The notes below the pieces were generated by a model, which was not told where the DNA came from, did not search any database, and saw only the letters and a list, made by a program, of their open reading frames with translations. Shown here in pieces: positions 25,946-34,587 of a DNA stretch of 64,000 nucleotides; the stretch's first letter is position 1, and every line of letters begins with the position of its first letter. The position numbers and the translations under genes were made by a program. Origin of the DNA: Rhodocyclales bacterium (GTDB lineage Bacteria; Pseudomonadota; Gammaproteobacteria; Burkholderiales; Rhodocyclaceae); NCBI GenBank assembly GCA_043743785.1, contig JAYTVW010000161.1:35063-99062 (forward strand), in the 5' to 3' direction.

Positions 25946-26907
25946 ACGGGAAAAGGGTAGCCTCTGGCTTCCAGGTCCAGCCAGACTTCCAGGCCCTGGG
26001 CGTTCAGCTCCAGGTCCGTATCCCACAGGGCCAGCAGATCGGCATCCGGCAGGGTGCAACCGAAGGCACGGGATTCCACCAGCAAGAGTTCCTGCAGGCC
26101 AGCCACAATGTTGGCGTGGCGCGCCGTACCCGCCCCCCTCTGCGCCAGGGCGATGTCGCAATGGGAGGCAATGAAACGCTGCATCTCCGCCGCCAGGGCT
26201 GGCACTTCACCGACCCGGCTGAAATGGGTCAGGTAGAGAAATTCAGGTGCGAAGTCGAGCAGGCGCTTGATGGTGGCCACCATGGCGTCCGGCTCGAACT
26301 GGGTGGGCGTGGTGCTCGGAAATATGAACTTCCGGCTATCCGTATCCATCTCCCGGTAGGAAAGTCCAAACACGTCGCCGGTGAAAATGCCCCGGCTCTT
26401 CCGGTCCACGATGGCGATGTGATGGCGGGCGTGGCCCGGCGCATCCACGCACAACAGTTCCCGCCCCGCCAGATCCAGCCTCAGGCCATCCACCGCGTCG
26501 ATGATGCGCGCCGCCGGCACGGGCACGATCTCGCCATACACCCGCTGCACATATTCGGCGCCATACACCGCCGTGACGCCGTCCACCAACCGGGCCGGCG
26601 AAGCCATGTGGCGCGAACCACGGGGATGCACCACCAGACGCGCATTCGGGCAAGCCTGCATGATGCTGCCGGCACCGCCCGCATGATCCAGGTGGATGTG
26701 GGTCAGGATGACGTAATCCACCGCCTCCGGCCCCAGGCCGATGCGCCCCAGGGCATCCAGCAGATGGGGCAGCGCATCGTTGCTGCCGGTATCCACCAGA
26801 GCCACCCGGCCGTTTTCCACCACCAGGTGAATGGCAGCCAACAGGGGGCGCACGTAGTTGGCGCAAAAGGCGTAAACGCCGTTGTTGTAGTCGATCCAGC
26901 GGTGCAT
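25942..26907 (-). CDS. MBL-fold metallo-hydrolase
   Basis: ATG 26907 (MHRWIDYNNGVY). THIHLDHAGG metal-binding motif. The upstream extension in the track was discarded. Confidence 0.8.
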   Translation of the reverse strand: MHRWIDYNNGVYAFCANYVRPLLAAIHLVVENGRVALVDTGSNDALPHLLDALGRIGLGPEAVDYVILTHIHLDHAGGAGSIMQACPNARLVVHPRGSRHMASPARLVDGVTAVYGAEYVQRVYGEIVPVPAARIIDAVDGLRLDLAGRELLCVDAPGHARHHIAIVDRKSRGIFTGDVFGLSYREMDTDSRKFIFPSTTPTQFEPDAMVATIKRLLDFAPEFLYLTHFSRVGEVPALAAEMQRFIASHCDIALAQRGAGTARHANIVAGLQELLLVESRAFGCTLPDADLLALWDTDLELNAQGLEVWLDLEARGYPFPV

Positions 26908-28391: not shown

Positions 28392-28392
28392 T

Positions 28393-29526
28393 TCACTTCG
28401 GCCGGTAGGCCACTGCGGAGGTGAAGATACCGGACAGGCGCTGGACCTTGGCCCGGTCCCCCTGCCGCACCTCGCCCGCGTCCACCTTGTCGTGAATCAC
28501 GTAGCGCCGCTGGCCCAGGGCCTGGACCACGTGCTGCGCGGCGACGAACTCGATCACCCCGCGCCACTGGTTATCGCCCTCCTCTGTCTTCGAATAGGAA
28601 TACTGCTCGCAGGCTGCCGTGTTGCAGAAGCTGATACAGGCGTTCAGGCTATCCGCCGCCTCGTCCTGGCGGGCCGGCACCTTGGCTGAAGCAGGGCGCG
28701 GCACGGCAGCGACCGGGAGCGGCACAGTCGGCACCGCAGCGGCAGGCCGGGGCACTTCGACCGGAACGGCAACAGCCGCCGGTAGCACAGGGGACGCCGC
28801 CGGCACCGGAGCCACGGCGGCAGGCTGGAGACGCGCTGCGGGCGGCGTCACGACGGGGGGACGAGGAGGCGCGAAAACAGGGGGACGCAGGAGAGCAGGC
28901 GCTGCCGCCACCGGCTCCGCTGTCGGCCTCTGCCGCACCGCCGGCACACTGGCAGGCCCCGGCAGGCTGGCCAGGGGCGCCACGGCCCGCACCGGACGCG
29001 GCGGCGCCTCCGGTAGCGGAAAACTGGCCCCCATGCGGGCAGCAGCCTGTACCAGACGCACCAGGGCCAGGCTGCTGTCCTCGCCGGGCACCCGTTCGCC
29101 GATGCAGCCCACCAGGCGCACCGAGCCTTGCTCACTCTCCTTCACCGCCCCCGCGTAGCCGCTGCCGTCGCCCCCATCCAGCATGCTGACCGGCGTCGCC
29201 TCCGCGAACCAGCGGGACAGCATGGGGTGCACCAGGTTCGGCTCCACTTCCACCAGCCGGTCGATGCGGAACATCTTGGTCCAGCGATCCTGCCCCGGAA
29301 TAGCCCGCACGGCACCCAGCCAAGGCGGCAGAGTGGCCTTCGCCCAGGCGCTCAGGTCGACGATCTGCCCCGCCGGCAGCAGCACCGTCAGAGCGCGCAG
29401 AATGACCCCAGCCAGATCCGCCACCGCCGCTTCCCGCTGCCGGTCCACGTCCCGGGCCAAGGCCAGGGCCGCCAACGCCCGCGCCTCCATGTCCGTACCG
29501 ACCTCCAGCATCCTGTCAGTTTTCAT
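28393..29526 (-). CDS. hypothetical protein with long Pro/Ala/Val-rich central linker
   Basis: 377-aa ORF with globular-looking N- and C-terminal parts joined by ~115 aa of P/A/V-rich low complexity. No family recognised. Confidence 0.6.
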   Translation of the reverse strand: MKTDRMLEVGTDMEARALAALALARDVDRQREAAVADLAGVILRALTVLLPAGQIVDLSAWAKATLPPWLGAVRAIPGQDRWTKMFRIDRLVEVEPNLVHPMLSRWFAEATPVSMLDGGDGSGYAGAVKESEQGSVRLVGCIGERVPGEDSSLALVRLVQAAARMGASFPLPEAPPRPVRAVAPLASLPGPASVPAVRQRPTAEPVAAAPALLRPPVFAPPRPPVVTPPAARLQPAAVAPVPAASPVLPAAVAVPVEVPRPAAAVPTVPLPVAAVPRPASAKVPARQDEAADSLNACISFCNTAACEQYSYSKTEEGDNQWRGVIEFVAAQHVVQALGQRRYVIHDKVDAGEVRQGDRAKVQRLSGIFTSAVAYRPK

Positions 29527-29632
29527 TGTTTCACCCGCTCATTCATGCCCGCCCTCACAACGAAATCCGCCACCGGAAACCCATAGGGGGAAAAGATGCC
29601 GAGTAAAGCACAAAGCCTCGGTCGCCACCAGG

Positions 29633-29669
29633 GATATATCTTGATATATGCCACGCTCTGACCTAGACT
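29633..29669 (+). promoter_or_regulatory. putative sigma70 promoter and operator of vapBC
   Basis: TTGATA (29641-29646), a 17-nt spacer, then TAGACT (29664-29669), 30 nt before the vapB ATG. Overlapped by the 10-bp-phased direct repeat GATATAT (29633-29639, 29643-29649). Confidence 0.45.
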
Positions 29670-29699
29670 TTGGCATCACCTTTCCCAAAGAATGCCGTC

Positions 29700-29960
29700 A
29701 TGAGCCAGGTCGCCAAATTATTCACCAATGGCCGCAGCCAGGCGGTGCGCCTGCCGGCCGCCTATCGTTTTGACACCACGGAAGTTTTCATCCGCCAGGA
29801 TCCGGCAACCGGCGACGTGATCCTGTCGCGCAAACCAGACAACTGGGATGGGTTCTTCGCCAACCTGAAGACGGCCGGGATACCAGCGGATTTCCTGGAT
29901 GAAAAAGAACGCCAACAAGACAGCAAGGAGCGGGATCCTTTCGAAGGCTGCGGCGAATGA
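29700..29960 (+). CDS. vapB: type II antitoxin VapB (AbrB/SpoVT-like)
   Basis: MSQVAKLFTNGRSQAVRLPAAYRF looped-hinge-helix N-terminus. ATGA overlap with the downstream PIN gene. Confidence 0.8.
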   Translation: MSQVAKLFTNGRSQAVRLPAAYRFDTTEVFIRQDPATGDVILSRKPDNWDGFFANLKTAGIPADFLDEKERQQDSKERDPFEGCGE

Positions 29961-30355
29961 AACCCATCCTGCTGGACACTAACACCGTCAGCCATCTGCT
30001 CAAGGGCCATCCGGCTGTCGCCCAGCACGTGCAGGCCGCCCCCATGGCGGCCCTGTGCATTTCCGCCGTCACCGAAGGCGAACTGCGCTTCGGCCTCGCC
30101 AAACGCCCGGAGGCGAAACGCCTGCATCTCGCCGTGGCGGAGTTCCTCCGCCGTGTGGACGTCCTGCCCTGGAGCAGCGACGTGGCCCAGACCTACGGCC
30201 CCCTGCGCGCCGACCTGTCCCGCCACGGCAAGACCCTCACCCCACTTGATCTCCTCATCGCCGCCCACGCCCTCTCAGTCGGTGCCACCCTCGTCACCAA
30301 CGACCAGGCCTTCCGGCAAGTTAATGGACTACAGGTTGAGGATTGGACGGCGTGA
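29957..30355 (+). CDS. vapC: type II toxin VapC (PIN-domain ribonuclease)
   Basis: 132 aa. MKPILLDTNTVSHLL ... ISAVTEGEL ... DLLIAAHA ... LVTND acidic PIN signature. Confidence 0.88.
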   Translation: MKPILLDTNTVSHLLKGHPAVAQHVQAAPMAALCISAVTEGELRFGLAKRPEAKRLHLAVAEFLRRVDVLPWSSDVAQTYGPLRADLSRHGKTLTPLDLLIAAHALSVGATLVTNDQAFRQVNGLQVEDWTA

Positions 30356-30360
30356 ACCGC

Positions 30361-30450
30361 GTAGGGCGTCAATAAGCGCAGCGCATTGCGCCGATTTCCC
30401 CGGGTGCGGGCCGCCCAGCGGCGCAATGCCCTTCGGTTATTGCGCCCTAC
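30361..30450. repeat. GTAG-type REP pair, family 3 (GTAGGGCGCAATAAG...)
   Basis: GTAGGGCGTCAATAAGCGCAGCGCATTGCGCCG ... GGCGCAATGCCCTTCGGTTATTGCGCCCTAC. Lies between the convergent vapC and hicB genes. Confidence 0.8.
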
Positions 30451-30453
30451 CCA

Positions 30454-30843
30454 CTACCCTCGCAAGGCCAAGTGCGCGATATAGCCTGAACGGGATTCAT
30501 TGGCCGCCTTGGCGGCGGCATCGATGCGGCGCAGGACCCGGGCCGGCAGGGTGATGTTCACCCGCTCGGCCTTGTCCGAGAGTTGCGCCAGATCCACTTC
30601 CACCACGGCCCACACCCAGCCGGCGAATTCCGCATTGGCCTGATGTTCGGCCAGGGTGCCGGCCTCCGGCACCGGGCCGCCATCATCAATGACCGTTTCC
30701 AGCCACAACTCAATGGACTCCCGGGCATTGTCCAGCGCCTCGTCGAGCGTATCGCCCGCCGAAAAGCACCCCGGCAGGTCCGGCACCGCCACCCCCCAGG
30801 CCTGTTGTGCGTTGCCCGGCTCAAGCGCAATCGGATACCTCAT
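30454..30843 (-). CDS. hicB: type II antitoxin HicB
   Basis: YPIALEPGNAQQAWGVAVPDLPGCFSAGDTLDEAL RNase-H-like N-domain plus a C-terminal RHH (RVNITLPARVLRRID). Downstream of hicA. Confidence 0.85.
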   Translation of the reverse strand: MRYPIALEPGNAQQAWGVAVPDLPGCFSAGDTLDEALDNARESIELWLETVIDDGGPVPEAGTLAEHQANAEFAGWVWAVVEVDLAQLSDKAERVNITLPARVLRRIDAAAKAANESRSGYIAHLALRG

Positions 30844-30856
30844 GACCGCCTTCCTT

Positions 30857-31039
30857 TCATTTCAAACCGGCCTGTTTCAGAAGCTTGTGCACCAGGCCAA
30901 CGCCCATGTCCTTCTTCGGATGGGGCACGCTGATGTGGCCGCCGTGCGCTGGGTGCGTGTAGATGTGATGCGGCCCCTTCACACCCCGCAGCACCCACCC
31001 CGCCTGCTCAAGCCTTCTGATCAAGTCCGCGCTGTTCAT
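30857..31039 (-). CDS. hicA: type II toxin HicA (mRNA interferase)
   Basis: MNSADLIRRLEQAGWVLRGVKGPHHIYTHP...ISVPHPKKDMGVGLVHKLLKQAGL from ATG 31039. Confidence 0.85.
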   Translation of the reverse strand: MNSADLIRRLEQAGWVLRGVKGPHHIYTHPAHGGHISVPHPKKDMGVGLVHKLLKQAGLK

Positions 31040-31257
31040 GGGCGGACTATACACACCTTACACACGAATTTGAGCAAGTTGCCGTGATAACTCGTCTTGG
31101 CGACCGGCCACGCCTATCCACAGGTTTATGCGACAGCGCAGCACAACGCCCACCTCTTCGCCCAACGCGGTATGATTACAACATTTTGCAAAACAATAGT
31201 CCAGAACAGTCCAGATTAGACAACTGTTAACACTTGAAAAAGAAAGCTAGGCGAAAT

Positions 31258-32925
31258 ATGTCTGCGACTCAAATAACTTTATACCCTGCAATAAGGACCA
31301 AGCAACCCCACATTAAGCGCCCAAGTGAAGCCATTTCGGAAAGAAAATCTAAAGAACTTGTAATTGCATTTGCTGGACCTATTGGCTGTGGCATTAAAGC
31401 AGTCAAAGAGCGCTTAATTGAACAACTGAAGGCGTCTGGTTACTCAGTTAAGGAAATAAAGATAAGTGAATATTTGGAAGAGTGCGTCATCCAAGGGCTT
31501 ATCCCCAACACGGAAGCTATCAAACAAACCAACAAGGCTGACAGATATATTCAATTGCAAGATGCCGGCAACTCCTTAAGAATATCTCAAAGTGACATTC
31601 TTGCAGAGTATGCAATAAAGAGAATCGCGGAGACAAGAACAAAAGAAATAAAAGACGAAACAGAAAGCGTGACGGATTACATCCCCATTCGCACCGCCTA
31701 TATAATTGACCAATTAAAACATCAAGACGAGGTAAGTTTACTTAGGGCTGTATATGGAAATCTATTTTATCTTTTCGGTGTATTAAGCACATCTACTCGC
31801 CGCTCTACTCGTCTAAAGACTGACGGCATCCCACCGGACAGAATCCCTGAATTGGTTGAACGCGATCGAAAACAACGGGAAAAAAATGGTCAGCAGTTGG
31901 ACAAAGCTTTACAGTTGGCGGATTTTTTTATCCGCAATGACCATGCGAATGCAGAAGCAATTGAAAACCAGATTATTCGGTCGGTACACTTGATCCACGG
32001 AGCAAATGGCATTTCCCCAACAAAGGAGGAGTACGGAATGTATTCCGCCTACGCATCAGGCTTGCGTTCTGCTTGTTTATCTAGGCAAGTAGGAGCATCT
32101 ATCATGAACAACGACGGTATAATCATAGCTACAGGGCGAAATGACGTACCAAAAGGCGGAGGTGGTTTATATGGCCCAGAAGACGGCATAGGCGATGCTC
32201 GCTGTGTCAAACTGGAGAATGCTCAATGCCACAATGATTTCCACAAACAAAAACTAGTCAACAACATAGAAGAAATAATAAGAACCACGCTAAACAGTGC
32301 CATCACAGACATCTGTGGGAATGCTACGGAAGATCAGAAGGCTTTCCTTCAACAAATACATATTGATGAATTATCTAATAAAATCGCTTGCTCTGCGTAT
32401 GATGACACTCGCCTTGGCGGACTTATAGAGTTTTCCAGGTCAATTCATGCAGAGATGGATGCAATTGTCTCCCTCGCATCAAAGGGAGGAGGCGGCACGA
32501 AAGGTACTACGCTCTTTACCTACACATTTCCTTGCCATAACTGCGCCAGACATATTGTTGCAGCAGGAATTAGACAAGTCTATTACTTAGAACCATATGA
32601 AAAAAGTCTAGCCGTTGAGTTACACGGAGATGCAATCAATGTAGATGGCCAACGAGGGGGCTTGGGCGATGAACTTGAATCGAGAGAACAGGTGGAGTTT
32701 TTACACTTTGAAGGCGTTGCGCCAAGGCAATACCTCAACATGTTTACTCCATCAGGAGAGCGGAAAGACGGTAACGGCAAGGCAGTGAAGACCAATGTTC
32801 GCACCGCAGAGAAGAAAATTCCCGAGTACCTCGACGACTACAGAGAGTATGAGCTAAAAGTCGTCGCTCACTTGTTGAATGTAATCAACGAGTTAAAAGA
32901 AAAGGGGTTGCCGAAAAAAGGCTAG
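31258..32925 (+). CDS. avcD: P-loop nucleotide-kinase-like / deoxycytidylate-deaminase fusion protein (AvcD / dCTP-deaminase defence family-like)
   Basis: N-terminal IAFAGPIGCGIK P-loop. C-terminal zinc deaminase motifs ACLSRQVGA, HAE (32446-32454) and PCHNC (32530-32544), separated by a long insert. AT-rich relative to the flanks. ATG 31258 preferred to TTG 31234. Confidence 0.8.
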   Translation: MSATQITLYPAIRTKQPHIKRPSEAISERKSKELVIAFAGPIGCGIKAVKERLIEQLKASGYSVKEIKISEYLEECVIQGLIPNTEAIKQTNKADRYIQLQDAGNSLRISQSDILAEYAIKRIAETRTKEIKDETESVTDYIPIRTAYIIDQLKHQDEVSLLRAVYGNLFYLFGVLSTSTRRSTRLKTDGIPPDRIPELVERDRKQREKNGQQLDKALQLADFFIRNDHANAEAIENQIIRSVHLIHGANGISPTKEEYGMYSAYASGLRSACLSRQVGASIMNNDGIIIATGRNDVPKGGGGLYGPEDGIGDARCVKLENAQCHNDFHKQKLVNNIEEIIRTTLNSAITDICGNATEDQKAFLQQIHIDELSNKIACSAYDDTRLGGLIEFSRSIHAEMDAIVSLASKGGGGTKGTTLFTYTFPCHNCARHIVAAGIRQVYYLEPYEKSLAVELHGDAINVDGQRGGLGDELESREQVEFLHFEGVAPRQYLNMFTPSGERKDGNGKAVKTNVRTAEKKIPEYLDDYREYELKVVAHLLNVINELKEKGLPKKG

Positions 32926-32958
32926 TCCGCTACAGTTCGGCCCAAGGAGGATTTTAGA

Positions 32959-33165
32959 ATGTCACGGAAAAACGAGCGCAAAGACCGCCAACTGCCACTG
33001 GATTTTGAAGCCGTAAGCGCCCCCACGCCTGCAGTGTGCTTAGAACAGAAGGAATCATCGGTGGTTTGTTTCGCCTCTTACGTTCGCTCTAAATTGCCTC
33101 CTTCATCCAGCCGTGACCCTGTTTTGGATCGCCTGCTTCGTGAAGCAACACGACTAAGTTGGTAA
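32959..33165 (+). CDS. hypothetical small protein (68 aa), co-oriented with the deaminase gene
   Basis: AAGGAGG (32944-32950) 8 nt upstream of the ATG. Starts 33 nt after the deaminase stop. Followed by a hairpin terminator. No family recognised. Confidence 0.5.
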   Translation: MSRKNERKDRQLPLDFEAVSAPTPAVCLEQKESSVVCFASYVRSKLPPSSSRDPVLDRLLREATRLSW

Positions 33166-33190
33166 GAGCTGAGGCTCGTTGATCGTACGA

Positions 33191-33220
33191 AAAAGGCCAG
33201 CGGTGTTGGCCTTTTCCTTT
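33191..33220 (+). terminator. rho-independent terminator (bidirectional-looking) after the small ORF
   Basis: AAAAGGCCA-GCGGTGT-TGGCCTTTT stem-loop followed by a T-rich run. The A-tract on the other side would serve the convergent U32 gene. Confidence 0.75.
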
Positions 33221-33279
33221 AGCTAGTTTCTTAGCCCAGCTCACCGACCTAGCGGAATAAGCGTTTTATCTTTCCTTCC

Positions 33280-34587
33280 TCACACAAACCTCGCCAAAAA
33301 CGCCCCTTCGCAGCCCGCCAGCAGCGGAATCCTCACCTTGTGGCCGTTGCCCGGCGCCACGGAAATGGCCGCGCCATCCTTGTTCAGCATGGACTCGATG
33401 ACCATCTCGGTATTGCCCGCCGGGTGCAGCACCTCGATGCGATCCCCCACGGCAAAGCGGTTCTTCACATCGATCTCGGCCCAGCCGTCCGCCCAGCCCA
33501 GCACGTCGCCGACGTAGAGGCTGCGGCCTGACACCGAATTGCCCCTTGTGTAGTTCTGCAGGATGGCGTCGCCCTCCGCCGCCCAGTCCCTATCCTTGTT
33601 GCGCATGAAGAAACCGTCCGTGTAGCCCCGGTTGGCCAGGCCGTCCAGTTCCTCGATGAGGCGCTTGTCGAAGGGCCGACCGGCCACGGCGTCGTCAATG
33701 GCGCGGCGGTAGCTCTGGGTGGTGCGGGCGGCGTAATAGGGGGACTTGGTGCGGCCTTCGATCTTCAGGGAATCCACGCCGATGTCCACCAAACGCTGGA
33801 CGTGCTCGATAGCCCGCAGGTCCTTGGAGTTGAGCACGTAGGTGCCGTGCTCGTCTTCCTCCACCGGCATGAGTTCGCCGCTGCGCTGGCCCTCTTCCAG
33901 CAGCCAGGCCTTGTGATTGGCCTCGACGGCAGGCACCACGTCGCCGTCCGGCGTGTCCACCGTGTCGTGCAACTGGTAGCCCCAGCGGCAGGCATTGGTA
34001 CAGGAACCCTGGTTGGCGTCCCGGTGGTTGAAATAGCCGGAAAGCAGGCATCTCCCTGAGTAGGCGATGCACAGGGCACCGTGCACAAACACCTCCAGTT
34101 CCATGTCCGGGCATTCCTGGCGGATCTCGGCCACTTCGTTCAGGGACAGTTCCCGGGAGAGGATGACGCGACTCACACCCAGCTTCTTCCAGAAGCGCAC
34201 CGCTGCGTAATTCATGGTGTTGGACTGCACCGACAAGTGGATCGGCACCTCGGGCCAGCGTTCCCGCACCATGTCGATGAGGCCCGGGTCCGCCATGATG
34301 AGGGCGTCAGGTTTCAGCGCGATCACCGGCGCCATGTCCGCCAGGTAGTTCTTGATCTTGCTGTTGTGGGGATAGATGTTGCTCACCACGTAGAGTTTCG
34401 AGCCGACGGCGTGGGCGGCAGCGATACCTTCCGCCAGACTTTCCAGGTCGCCGAAGTCGTTGTTCCTAACCCGCAGGCTGTAGCGGGGCTGGCCGGCGTA
34501 CACGGCATTGGCGCCGAAGGCCAGGGCGGTGCGCAGCATGGCGAGGGAGCCGGCGGGGGCGAGAAGTTCGGGGGCGGGCTTGGACAT
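33280..34587 (-). CDS. U32-family peptidase (YegQ/TrhP-like)
   Basis: ATG 34587: MSKPAPELLAPAGSLAMLRTALAFGANAVYAG ... EVFVHGALCIAYSGRCLLS are U32 signatures. The 388-codon upstream extension of the track ORF overlaps the OMP gene and is Arg/Gly-rich junk. Confidence 0.88.
   Translation of the reverse strand: MSKPAPELLAPAGSLAMLRTALAFGANAVYAGQPRYSLRVRNNDFGDLESLAEGIAAAHAVGSKLYVVSNIYPHNSKIKNYLADMAPVIALKPDALIMADPGLIDMVRERWPEVPIHLSVQSNTMNYAAVRFWKKLGVSRVILSRELSLNEVAEIRQECPDMELEVFVHGALCIAYSGRCLLSGYFNHRDANQGSCTNACRWGYQLHDTVDTPDGDVVPAVEANHKAWLLEEGQRSGELMPVEEDEHGTYVLNSKDLRAIEHVQRLVDIGVDSLKIEGRTKSPYYAARTTQSYRRAIDDAVAGRPFDKRLIEELDGLANRGYTDGFFMRNKDRDWAAEGDAILQNYTRGNSVSGRSLYVGDVLGWADGWAEIDVKNRFAVGDRIEVLHPAGNTEMVIESMLNKDGAAISVAPGNGHKVRIPLLAGCEGAFLARFV

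Follow-up and report, generated by a model that had tools for sequence, protein, structure and literature searches.

The 64,000-nucleotide stretch analysed here, referred to as the window, belongs to a Rhodocyclales bacterium (assembly GCA_043743785.1, contig JAYTVW010000161.1, positions 35,063 to 99,062 of the forward strand) and contains an AT-rich segment at 31055-33225, between hicAB and a U32 peptidase gene. The G+C content of the segment is 0.451, and that of the deaminase coding sequence within it is 0.436, compared with 0.655-0.656 in both flanks and 0.623 in the whole window. The compositional contrast that a first-pass annotation of the sequence had estimated by eye is thus confirmed by measurement (45.1% versus about 65.5%). 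Two genes lie in the segment, both on the forward strand. The first (31258-32925) was identified from NCBIfam, PADLOC and homologs as a gene for an avcD-type anti-phage deaminase, of the deoxycytidine tri- and monophosphate (dCTP/dCMP) deaminase type, and encodes 555 amino acids when read from its ATG or 563 amino acids if translation begins at an alternative upstream TTG at 31234. The second is the co-oriented open reading frame (ORF) that the first-pass annotation had noticed downstream of the deaminase gene. This small partner gene (32959-33165) follows the deaminase stop codon after 33 nucleotides, consists of 68 codons, and is proposed here as a counterpart of avcI, the antitoxin locus of the AvcID systems of Vibrio.

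The sequence of the first gene clearly places it in the anti-phage dCTP deaminase (AvcD) family as a kinase/zinc-deaminase fusion, which is the assignment it had been given earlier. Its product scores 467.1 bits against the 400-bit cutoff of the NCBIfam equivalog NF041025 (anti-phage dCTP deaminase), covering model positions 1-437 of 437, and it matches the PADLOC dCTPdeaminase model PDLC02373 nearly end to end (E = 3.5e-168). The 555-codon ORF and the motifs quoted from it in the first-pass annotation were all found where that annotation had put them. Alignment and Foldseek delimit an N-terminal P-loop domain resembling nucleoside monophosphate (NMP) kinases (approximately residues 33-246, 31354-31995), in which the P-loop IAFAGPIGCGIK, including GPIGCG, occupies residues 36-47 (31363-31398). 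The C-terminal zinc deaminase domain (residues 256-455, 32023-32622) matches Pfam PF00383 (E = 4.7e-15) and resembles dCMP deaminases by sequence and fold, with HAE at 32446-32454 and PCHNC at 32530-32544. G40, P41, G43 and G45 of the P-loop and H397, A398, E399, P425, C426 and C429 of the deaminase domain are invariant in an alignment of 23 homologs. As had been noted, the deaminase core is split by a long insert. The insert amounts to about 90 residues (approximately 32155-32430), since the 102-position Pfam profile stretches over residues 256-444 and the T4 dCMP deaminase aligns as two pieces, 263-302 and 394-450, and it is helical in the predicted model.

The AlphaFold model of the deaminase protein has a predicted local distance difference test score (pLDDT) of 72.5. 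The fold search that had been proposed as a check on the domain assignment, made with Foldseek against the PDB, returned NMP kinases for the N-terminal half (the adenylate-kinase-related protein 3lw7 with a target TM-score of 0.64-0.72, dephospho-CoA kinase (CoaE) and thymidylate kinase (Tmk)) and dCMP deaminases for the C-terminal half, which PDB dCMP deaminases also match by sequence; no structure of AvcD was found in the PDB. By analogy with characterised homologs, the protein would be an active deaminase. More than 6000 homologs were found, many of them named 'anti-phage dCTP deaminase', and an identical protein is already present in NCBI and ENA. Identity to the gammaproteobacterial homologs that were sampled, a set without the Vibrio enzymes, is about 39-48%. 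The deaminase gene itself is ordinary, a horizontally acquired member of a known family that is already annotated.

The small gene is tied to the deaminase gene by homology as well as by position. A tblastn search with its 68-amino-acid product against 100 related loci placed every match directly behind the deaminase gene, and an iterated profile found homologous ORFs of 50-95 codons in 56 loci. When six-frame stop-to-stop segments were searched with a profile seeded from the window ORF, 64 of 14,594 matched (up to E = 10), and all 64 lie on the deaminase strand adjacent to the deaminase gene, 57 of them downstream and 7 upstream, with zero matches elsewhere. Further iteration brought the loci with a partner to 66 of 102 by adding upstream ORFs of Enterobacterales and other Gammaproteobacteria, and again produced no stray matches. 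Counted over distinct loci, the profile detects a partner in about 62 of about 95, always adjoining the deaminase gene. Most lineages have the partner downstream; Gammaproteobacteria have it upstream, where avcI also lies. A context-blind exhaustive profile search of 1.84 billion representative proteins yielded 51 matches, nearly all of them free-standing proteins of 42-85 amino acids. The three database matches that were examined all adjoin a kinase-deaminase gene, one downstream and two upstream, and one of the upstream proteins carries all three family motifs. Three long proteins (P0254, 1716 amino acids; P0298, 2975 amino acids; P0300, 413 amino acids) match the profile in several short stretches each, and these matches are probably artefacts of low complexity or of repeats.

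No Pfam, NCBIfam or PADLOC model matches the small protein, and the sources label the family only 'hypothetical'. In G+C-rich loci, ORFs counted by position alone occur near 78% of deaminase genes versus 34% of random anchors; such counts are weak in these loci, and reliance is therefore placed on the homology-based counts. Judged by sequence homology, the 68-codon ORF is the widespread, unnamed and regular companion of the enzyme. The first-pass annotation had suggested that the locus may be an uncharacterised multi-component variant. The second gene is real, but the arrangement is not specific to this locus, being instead the rule across the family. The partner, moreover, is probably no additional component; it would be the equivalent of the avcI antitoxin locus already known, sitting 3' rather than 5' of the enzyme gene.

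Members of the small-protein family share a layout that begins with a basic N-terminus and a QLxLxF motif. A variable linker leads from there to a short hydrophobic element, (V/I)(V/I)xF, and the C-terminus is an amphipathic helix, VLxRLLxEAxxLxW, which ends at the stop codon. In the window protein, QLPLDF belongs to the basic N-terminus, the strand reads VVCF, and VLDRLLREATRLSW forms the C-terminal helix directly before the stop codon. Tryptophan is the final residue in 26 of the 51 distinct downstream-type members versus 2.8% of background ORFs. AlphaFold predicts the small protein to be mostly disordered, and the sole confident element is the C-terminal helix ending in tryptophan. A disordered chain with a C-terminal helix, if the model is right, would be characteristic of peptides that fold when they bind a partner. 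An antitoxin with a recognisable DNA-binding fold (helix-turn-helix, ribbon-helix-helix or AbrB) was sought with Pfam, NCBIfam and PADLOC and in the predicted structure, which is disordered apart from the helix, and none was found.

The small gene has candidate expression signals of its own. A sigma-70-like promoter is predicted at 32908-32936, with TTGCCG (32908-32913) and TACAGT (32931-32936) separated by a 17-nucleotide spacer, and it straddles the TAG stop codon of the deaminase gene (32923-32925). In a comparative alignment, relatives have TTGCCG, TTGTCG or TTGACA, then 17 nucleotides, then TAnAnT. The pattern TTGNNN-N16-18-TANNNT is present in 17 of 51 downstream-type loci versus 3.9% of background (p = 4e-12), and in nearly all members of the clade to which the window belongs. 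The last codons of the deaminase gene (…GLPKKG-stop, 32905-32925) overlap the predicted -35 element, and the codons for G-L-P/S (GGN TTG CCG/TCG) are conserved in clade relatives, so that this stretch appears to be constrained as both coding sequence and promoter. A Shine-Dalgarno sequence, AAGGAGG (32944-32950), can be read directly 8 nucleotides before the small-gene start, and relatives have a purine-rich GGAGG-like box at an equal distance. Downstream of the ORF, a hairpin resembling an intrinsic terminator, AAAAGGCCAGC/GTTGGCCTTTT, is followed by a T-rich tail (33191-33220, -14.8 kcal/mol), and comparable hairpins follow the small ORF in two other loci (L097 and L088). The promoter and the 3' hairpin were found by comparative alignment and folding. 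The first-pass annotation had described a terminator-bounded unit, and this description holds for the 3' end, where the hairpin lies, but not for the 5' side, which is a divergent intergenic region shared with hicA.

That 5' leader (31055-31257) is presumed to hold the deaminase promoter. A 5' leader alignment in search of an upstream AvcI-like element revealed no conservation among clade relatives, and the leader matched neither the profile of the small-ORF family nor Rfam. A scan of 29400-34000 with Rfam at a permissive threshold gave one sub-threshold match, which resembles a small nucleolar RNA, lies over the terminator and was taken as chance. The leader contains a tandem AGTCCAGA repeat in two copies (31199-31216) and a palindrome centred on TGTTAACA (31221-31236). 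In addition, a 14-nucleotide box, TAGTCCnnnACAGT, occurs both in the leader at 31197-31210 (TAGTCCAGAACAGT) and in the small-gene promoter at 32923-32936 (TAGTCCGCTACAGT), the two copies being identical at 11 of 14 positions. The shared box, the tandem repeat and the palindrome could be common operator sites, or could be due to chance.

In V. cholerae the inhibitor of the deaminase, DifV/AvcI, lies inside a 222-nucleotide (inner 174-nucleotide) ORF that is located immediately 5' of the deaminase gene and is co-oriented with it. The homologs in V. parahaemolyticus, Proteus mirabilis and Escherichia coli H10407 also have a small hypothetical ORF on the 5' side, among which the authors saw no strong similarity (bioRxiv 10.1101/2021.03.31.437871). 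For the RNA probe of V. parahaemolyticus avcI, the primers begin at one end with ATGGTTACAAATTTAAATG (MVTNLN) and correspond at the other to CAGAAAATTCGTTGGTAA (QKIRW-stop). They delimit an ORF of the form MVTNLN...QKIRW-stop, which means that the published avcI spans exactly one small ORF with the C-terminal signature of the family. Compared with the 5' ORF of Photobacterium damselae (MVTYLN...AAQKIRW-stop), these ends are identical at 16 of 19 and 16 of 18 nucleotides, and two differences at the 3' end are silent. Other 5' ORFs, from E. coli, Klebsiella and Vibrio coralliilyticus, end in ...LKW, ...IIW, ...ITW and ...LDW.

A profile built from downstream members only ranks the 5' ORFs top in enteric and Vibrio loci at E = 0.07-0.7, which is insignificant alone; the link to avcI was made by comparing profiles with profiles and by way of intermediates. 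Comparison of the family with the enteric and Vibrionaceae 5' ORFs by hhalign gave a probability of 85-90% (P ~2-6e-6) over the strand and the C-terminal helix, and a control with reversed sequence gave 0.2% (P = 0.36). On the strength of the V. parahaemolyticus primer ends and the Photobacterium and enteric ORFs, with V. cholerae avcI lying outside the comparison, the small gene probably corresponds to the 'AvcI' antitoxin locus. Its placement differs from that of AvcID, in which the partner is 5' of the deaminase gene in one operon; in the window, as in most non-gammaproteobacterial loci, it lies on the 3' side. A second class of 5' small ORF occurs in L105 (plasmid p58 of the enterotoxigenic E. 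coli strain H10407, 2618-2803) and in L104 and L106 (1672-1859). Its members end in …IILD-stop or …IVFD-stop and carry an NV(V/I)xF element and a C-terminal helix.

Taken together, the sequence data make it rather likely that the AT-rich module is a two-gene, AvcID-type nucleotide-depletion defence system with reversed gene order. The AvcD-type enzyme, once released, would convert dCTP and dCMP to dUTP and dUMP and so starve phage DNA replication. The small gene would be transcribed twice, by read-through from the deaminase gene and from its own promoter, which from its sequence may be active and would give a transcript of about 280 nucleotides ending at the terminator. With two sources of transcription, its product would be in excess and would hold the deaminase inactive, an inhibitory role suggested by homology and by position relative to avcI. 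Later work on AvcID found that AvcI decays after phage-induced transcription shut-off, which frees the deaminase. Similarly, shut-off of host transcription by a phage would let a short-lived inhibitor decay and release the enzyme encoded in the window.

Several observations weigh against this reading. About one third of the loci have no partner that the profile can detect. The predicted promoter is confined to the clade of the window, and a generic consensus scanner called neither it nor the 3' hairpin. The relationship with the avcI locus found by hhalign corresponds to weak E-values (0.002-0.4) when single-sequence hidden Markov models (HMMs) of the family and the enteric and Vibrio ORFs are compared. 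The H10407-type 5' ORF was not detectably related to the family by hhalign (6%) or by HMM comparison (E = 0.24-1.2 for the H10407/GB089 type), and it has either diverged very strongly or arisen independently. The model of the small protein is of low confidence (pLDDT 67, predicted TM-score 0.24). Finally, V. cholerae mutants in which the start codon of the small ORF was changed to a stop codon, or which lacked its ribosome-binding site, still inhibited the enzyme when overexpressed (bioRxiv 10.1101/2021.03.31.437871). Such inhibition suggests that translation is not needed in that species. From it and the lack of similarity among the small ORFs, the authors concluded that the inhibitor is RNA.

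This last point leads to the alternative that the locus is a classic type III AvcID system, in which the product of 32943-33220 would be an antitoxin RNA only, never translated, that inhibits the deaminase on binding, and the 68-codon frame would be functionless. Apart from the V. cholerae mutants, whose small ORF still blocks DcdV/AvcD toxicity, such a reading draws on the description of AvcI as an AvcD-binding RNA that disappears once transcription is shut off, and on the size of the predicted transcript, about 280 nucleotides, which is that of the avcI band on published Northern blots. The way in which the small gene evolves argues against it. Conservation is at the level of amino acids rather than nucleotides, and across phyla only protein profiles detect the family. 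Substitutions in independent pairs of relatives are dominated by the third codon position (e.g. 15/9/31 and 24/14/46 for the first, second and third positions), and the ratio of nonsynonymous to synonymous substitution rates (dN/dS) is 0.1-0.2 wherever dS is unsaturated, with the small gene evolving faster than the deaminase gene. The ATG start codon, the Shine-Dalgarno box, the reading frame, and the terminal tryptophan and stop codon are conserved, and in distant clades the small ORF and the end of the deaminase gene, stop codon included, share a few bases, an arrangement known from genes with coupled translation. RNAalifold found zero consensus pairs, and hence no shared structure, among 13 homologous small-gene regions, and folding of the window transcript is no better than that of shuffled sequences (z = -0.36). 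The small gene shows coding-type evolution, with sequence signatures of a translated gene, which is compatible with an additional function at the RNA level. It is more probable than otherwise that the 68-amino-acid peptide is made and matters, possibly besides a role of the RNA, and an antitoxin that is RNA only appears unlikely.

It is still less likely that the small protein is a positive sensor or adaptor, for example a replisome tether that acts through QLxLxF and couples the activation of the deaminase to replication status or to an attack on the clamp by phage. The published consensus for binding the beta sliding clamp is QLxLF or QLxLxL, and the strict motif Q[LM]x[LF]xF is found near the N-terminus in 29 of the 51 downstream-type members versus 0.6% of background ORFs. 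A protein predicted to be largely disordered and to contain short linear motifs would also suit a tether. The resemblance to clamp-binding proteins, however, consists of one short sequence motif. Because only 5 of 21 upstream-type (gammaproteobacterial) members possess it, QLxLxF is not the core of the family, and the homologous position in Vibrio encodes an inhibitor.

There is very little probability that the deaminase is a stand-alone, single-gene defence system with a hitch-hiking or spurious ORF downstream. The PADLOC and NCBIfam libraries did give a deaminase model only and none for the small ORF, and both the loci lacking a detectable partner and the ORFs of similar size near 34% of random anchors fit that description. 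The small ORFs, however, are homologous in sequence, have zero matches away from deaminase genes, adjoin a deaminase gene in all three database matches examined, and are under purifying selection. The dCMP deaminase type of the catalytic domain might suggest a housekeeping enzyme of pyrimidine metabolism with only a foreign appearance. This reading is refuted by an empty site in the closest relative and by the score of 61 bits against the 219-bit cutoff of the NCBIfam ComEB equivalog TIGR02571, and it is further opposed by the extra kinase-like domain and by a G+C content 20 points under that of the host.

The reversed-order AvcID reading can be set beside several known systems. AvcID of V. 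cholerae VSP-1 and V. parahaemolyticus (bioRxiv 10.1101/2021.03.31.437871, PMC10511110) has the same enzyme with a P-loop kinase-like and a zinc deaminase domain, a directly adjacent and co-oriented partner gene of about 55-75 codons, and the character of an accessory and mobile module. The window partner shares the strand and the C-terminal helix ending in tryptophan with the Photobacterium/V. parahaemolyticus avcI ORF. It differs in being 3' of the enzyme gene with its own predicted promoter, whereas avcI is 5', and in belonging to a family that evolves as a translated peptide with no conserved RNA structure, whereas AvcI is reported to be an untranslated RNA. The dCTP deaminase system of Tal et al. 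(E. coli AW1.7; bioRxiv 10.1101/2021.04.26.441389; NF041025, PADLOC) includes the window gene as a full-length member above the cutoff, with conserved kinase-motif and zinc-ligand residues and a sparse accessory distribution. That system was described and modelled as a single gene, however, while the window and most relatives have a conserved second gene.

The dCMP deaminases ComEB, T4 Cd, human DCTD and chlorovirus bi-DCD share the catalytic fold and the HAE/PCxxC zinc site with the window enzyme, but they are single-domain proteins of about 140-190 amino acids that lack the kinase domain, the insert of about 90 residues and the small partner. In toxin-first type II operons of the higBA, mqsRA or hicAB style, the toxin gene is followed by a gene for a small inhibitor, and an extra promoter for the inhibitor lies in or at the end of the toxin gene. 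The window module shares the gene order and the extra promoter, albeit a predicted one, with these operons. It differs from them in that the small protein yielded neither a recognisable DNA-binding domain nor a match in Pfam, and in that its inhibitory role is a presumed one.

Judged from the names of the nearest U32 homologs, the host is a Rhodocyclaceae-like betaproteobacterium. The deaminase gene is accessory, because the closest relative lacks the whole segment at 28392-33279, a 4.9-kb insertion between a DUF1615 gene and the trhP/yegQ-like U32 gene. The comparison was made at the level of gene maps through a U32 homolog that is 92% identical to the one in the window. In that relative the U32 gene directly abuts the DUF1615 gene, and the order of the surrounding genes is kept: a resistance-nodulation-division (RND) pump, an outer-membrane factor, U32, DUF1615, a metallo-beta-lactamase-fold protein, HDOD and glycosyltransferases. 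The presence/absence comparison among close relatives that the first-pass annotation had proposed, with a syntenic housekeeping dCMP deaminase as the opposing outcome, thus found an empty site amid conserved synteny. A 77%-identical U32 homolog was tried as a second comparison and was uninformative owing to its different synteny. Exact-sequence searches with the U32 and HicB proteins of the window returned only the same strain.

Besides the deaminase module, the insertion carries vapBC, hicAB and a proline-rich ORF that weakly matches KfrB. AT-richness is limited to the deaminase module, which forms only the right-hand part of the insertion, and the remainder to its left has a host-like G+C content of 0.664. 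No integrase, transposase, tRNA or flanking direct repeat was found in connection with the insertion, in agreement with the earlier statement that no mobility gene is visible at the locus, and around the module, where target-site duplications and terminal repeats were sought, the only repeats are short and at chance level. The contig of the closest relative (sample ERZ1426850) carries an 88-amino-acid gene and an MgtC-family gene, neither of which is in the window, between the DUF1615 and Lactamase_B genes. Since there is variation on both sides of DUF1615, this neighbourhood may be a local hot spot for insertions.

Homologous deaminase modules in other genomes are likewise AT-richer than their surroundings. 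Those of E. coli are located on plasmids of 4.6-5.8 kb, in an integrative conjugative element (ICE), and beside an integrase next to yjjG. The patchy accessory distribution in mobile or defence contexts that characterises AvcD is seen in the empty site, in the G+C content of 0.44 versus 0.66, and in homologs in plasmid, ICE and prophage-like settings. Among the Enterobacteriaceae loci, L102 and L107 are ColE1-like plasmids of 4.6 kb, L103 is the ICE, L104 and L106 are the loci with an integrase next to yjjG, and L109 and L112 are IncI plasmids. On very small enterobacterial plasmids the two-gene module is nearly the sole cargo, and in L104 the 5' small ORF exists but is unannotated.

The genes next to the module had been named correctly in the first-pass annotation, as Pfam and the source names agree on two toxin-antitoxin pairs upstream and a U32 neighbour. 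The vapBC pair (29670-30355, forward strand), which encodes a MazE/AbrB-like antitoxin and a PIN toxin, and the hicB/hicA pair (30454-31054, reverse strand) lie back to back within the insertion and have a G+C content of 0.66, unlike the deaminase module. The U32 peptidase gene is of the TrhP/YegQ type (33280-34587, reverse strand). Neither vapBC nor hicAB was found beside the module in the gene maps examined (E. coli, Klebsiella, Vibrionaceae and several metagenomic contigs), and the two pairs are unrelated cargo carried by the same insertion. Between the convergent vapC and hicB genes, an inverted repeat of 24 nucleotides (30370-30393 and 30419-30442, 88% complementary) is probably a bidirectional terminator. 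The proline-rich ORF (28393-29526, reverse strand) encodes 377 amino acids, rich in alanine and proline, with a sub-threshold match to the KfrB domain (E = 7e-4, 20 bits versus a 25-bit cutoff) and no match in PADLOC and NCBIfam searches, and it may be a plasmid remnant. The sole tRNA call in the window, a 91-nucleotide 'tRNA-???' with a four-base anticodon (gtat) reported by ARAGORN at 26510-26600 (reverse strand), lies within the coding region for a metallo-beta-lactamase-fold protein and is most likely a false positive.

The interest of the locus comes from what it implies for the family and not from the deaminase gene of the window. What appears to be new, as far as sequence can tell, is a partner on the opposite side from avcI with its own predicted promoter, and a conserved, unnamed family of small proteins. 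The PADLOC and NCBIfam models that were matched cover the deaminase only, and AvcI, the sole characterised regulator, has been described as a species-specific non-coding RNA without detectable conservation. A single family of small proteins goes with the deaminase gene across phyla, encoded either 5' or 3' of it. This family evolves as coding sequence, and the avcI ORF of Vibrionaceae is probably one of its members. Conservation of a protein throughout the family calls into question whether AvcI is only an RNA. The literature does not anticipate such a family, and a search of full texts turned up nothing on protein-level conservation of AvcI, on a peptide encoded there or on the structure of AvcID.

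It is possible, though doubtful, that the avcI locus encodes, in place of a non-coding RNA or in addition to one, a peptide of about 55-80 amino acids that is under purifying selection across Proteobacteria, Bacteroidota and other phyla. This peptide would be an ancestral protein-level regulator of the deaminase, encoded on either side of the enzyme gene, and may link activation to replication or clamp status. If so, AvcID would not be purely type III; it would combine RNA and peptide functions or resemble a type II system. Should the association be confirmed, the definition of the system in defence-annotation tools should become a two-gene one, and the regulator would be easy to find in any genome. 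Confirmation would also make the choice between regulation by RNA, by a peptide or by both decidable, which bears on how nucleotide-depletion systems sense phage infection.

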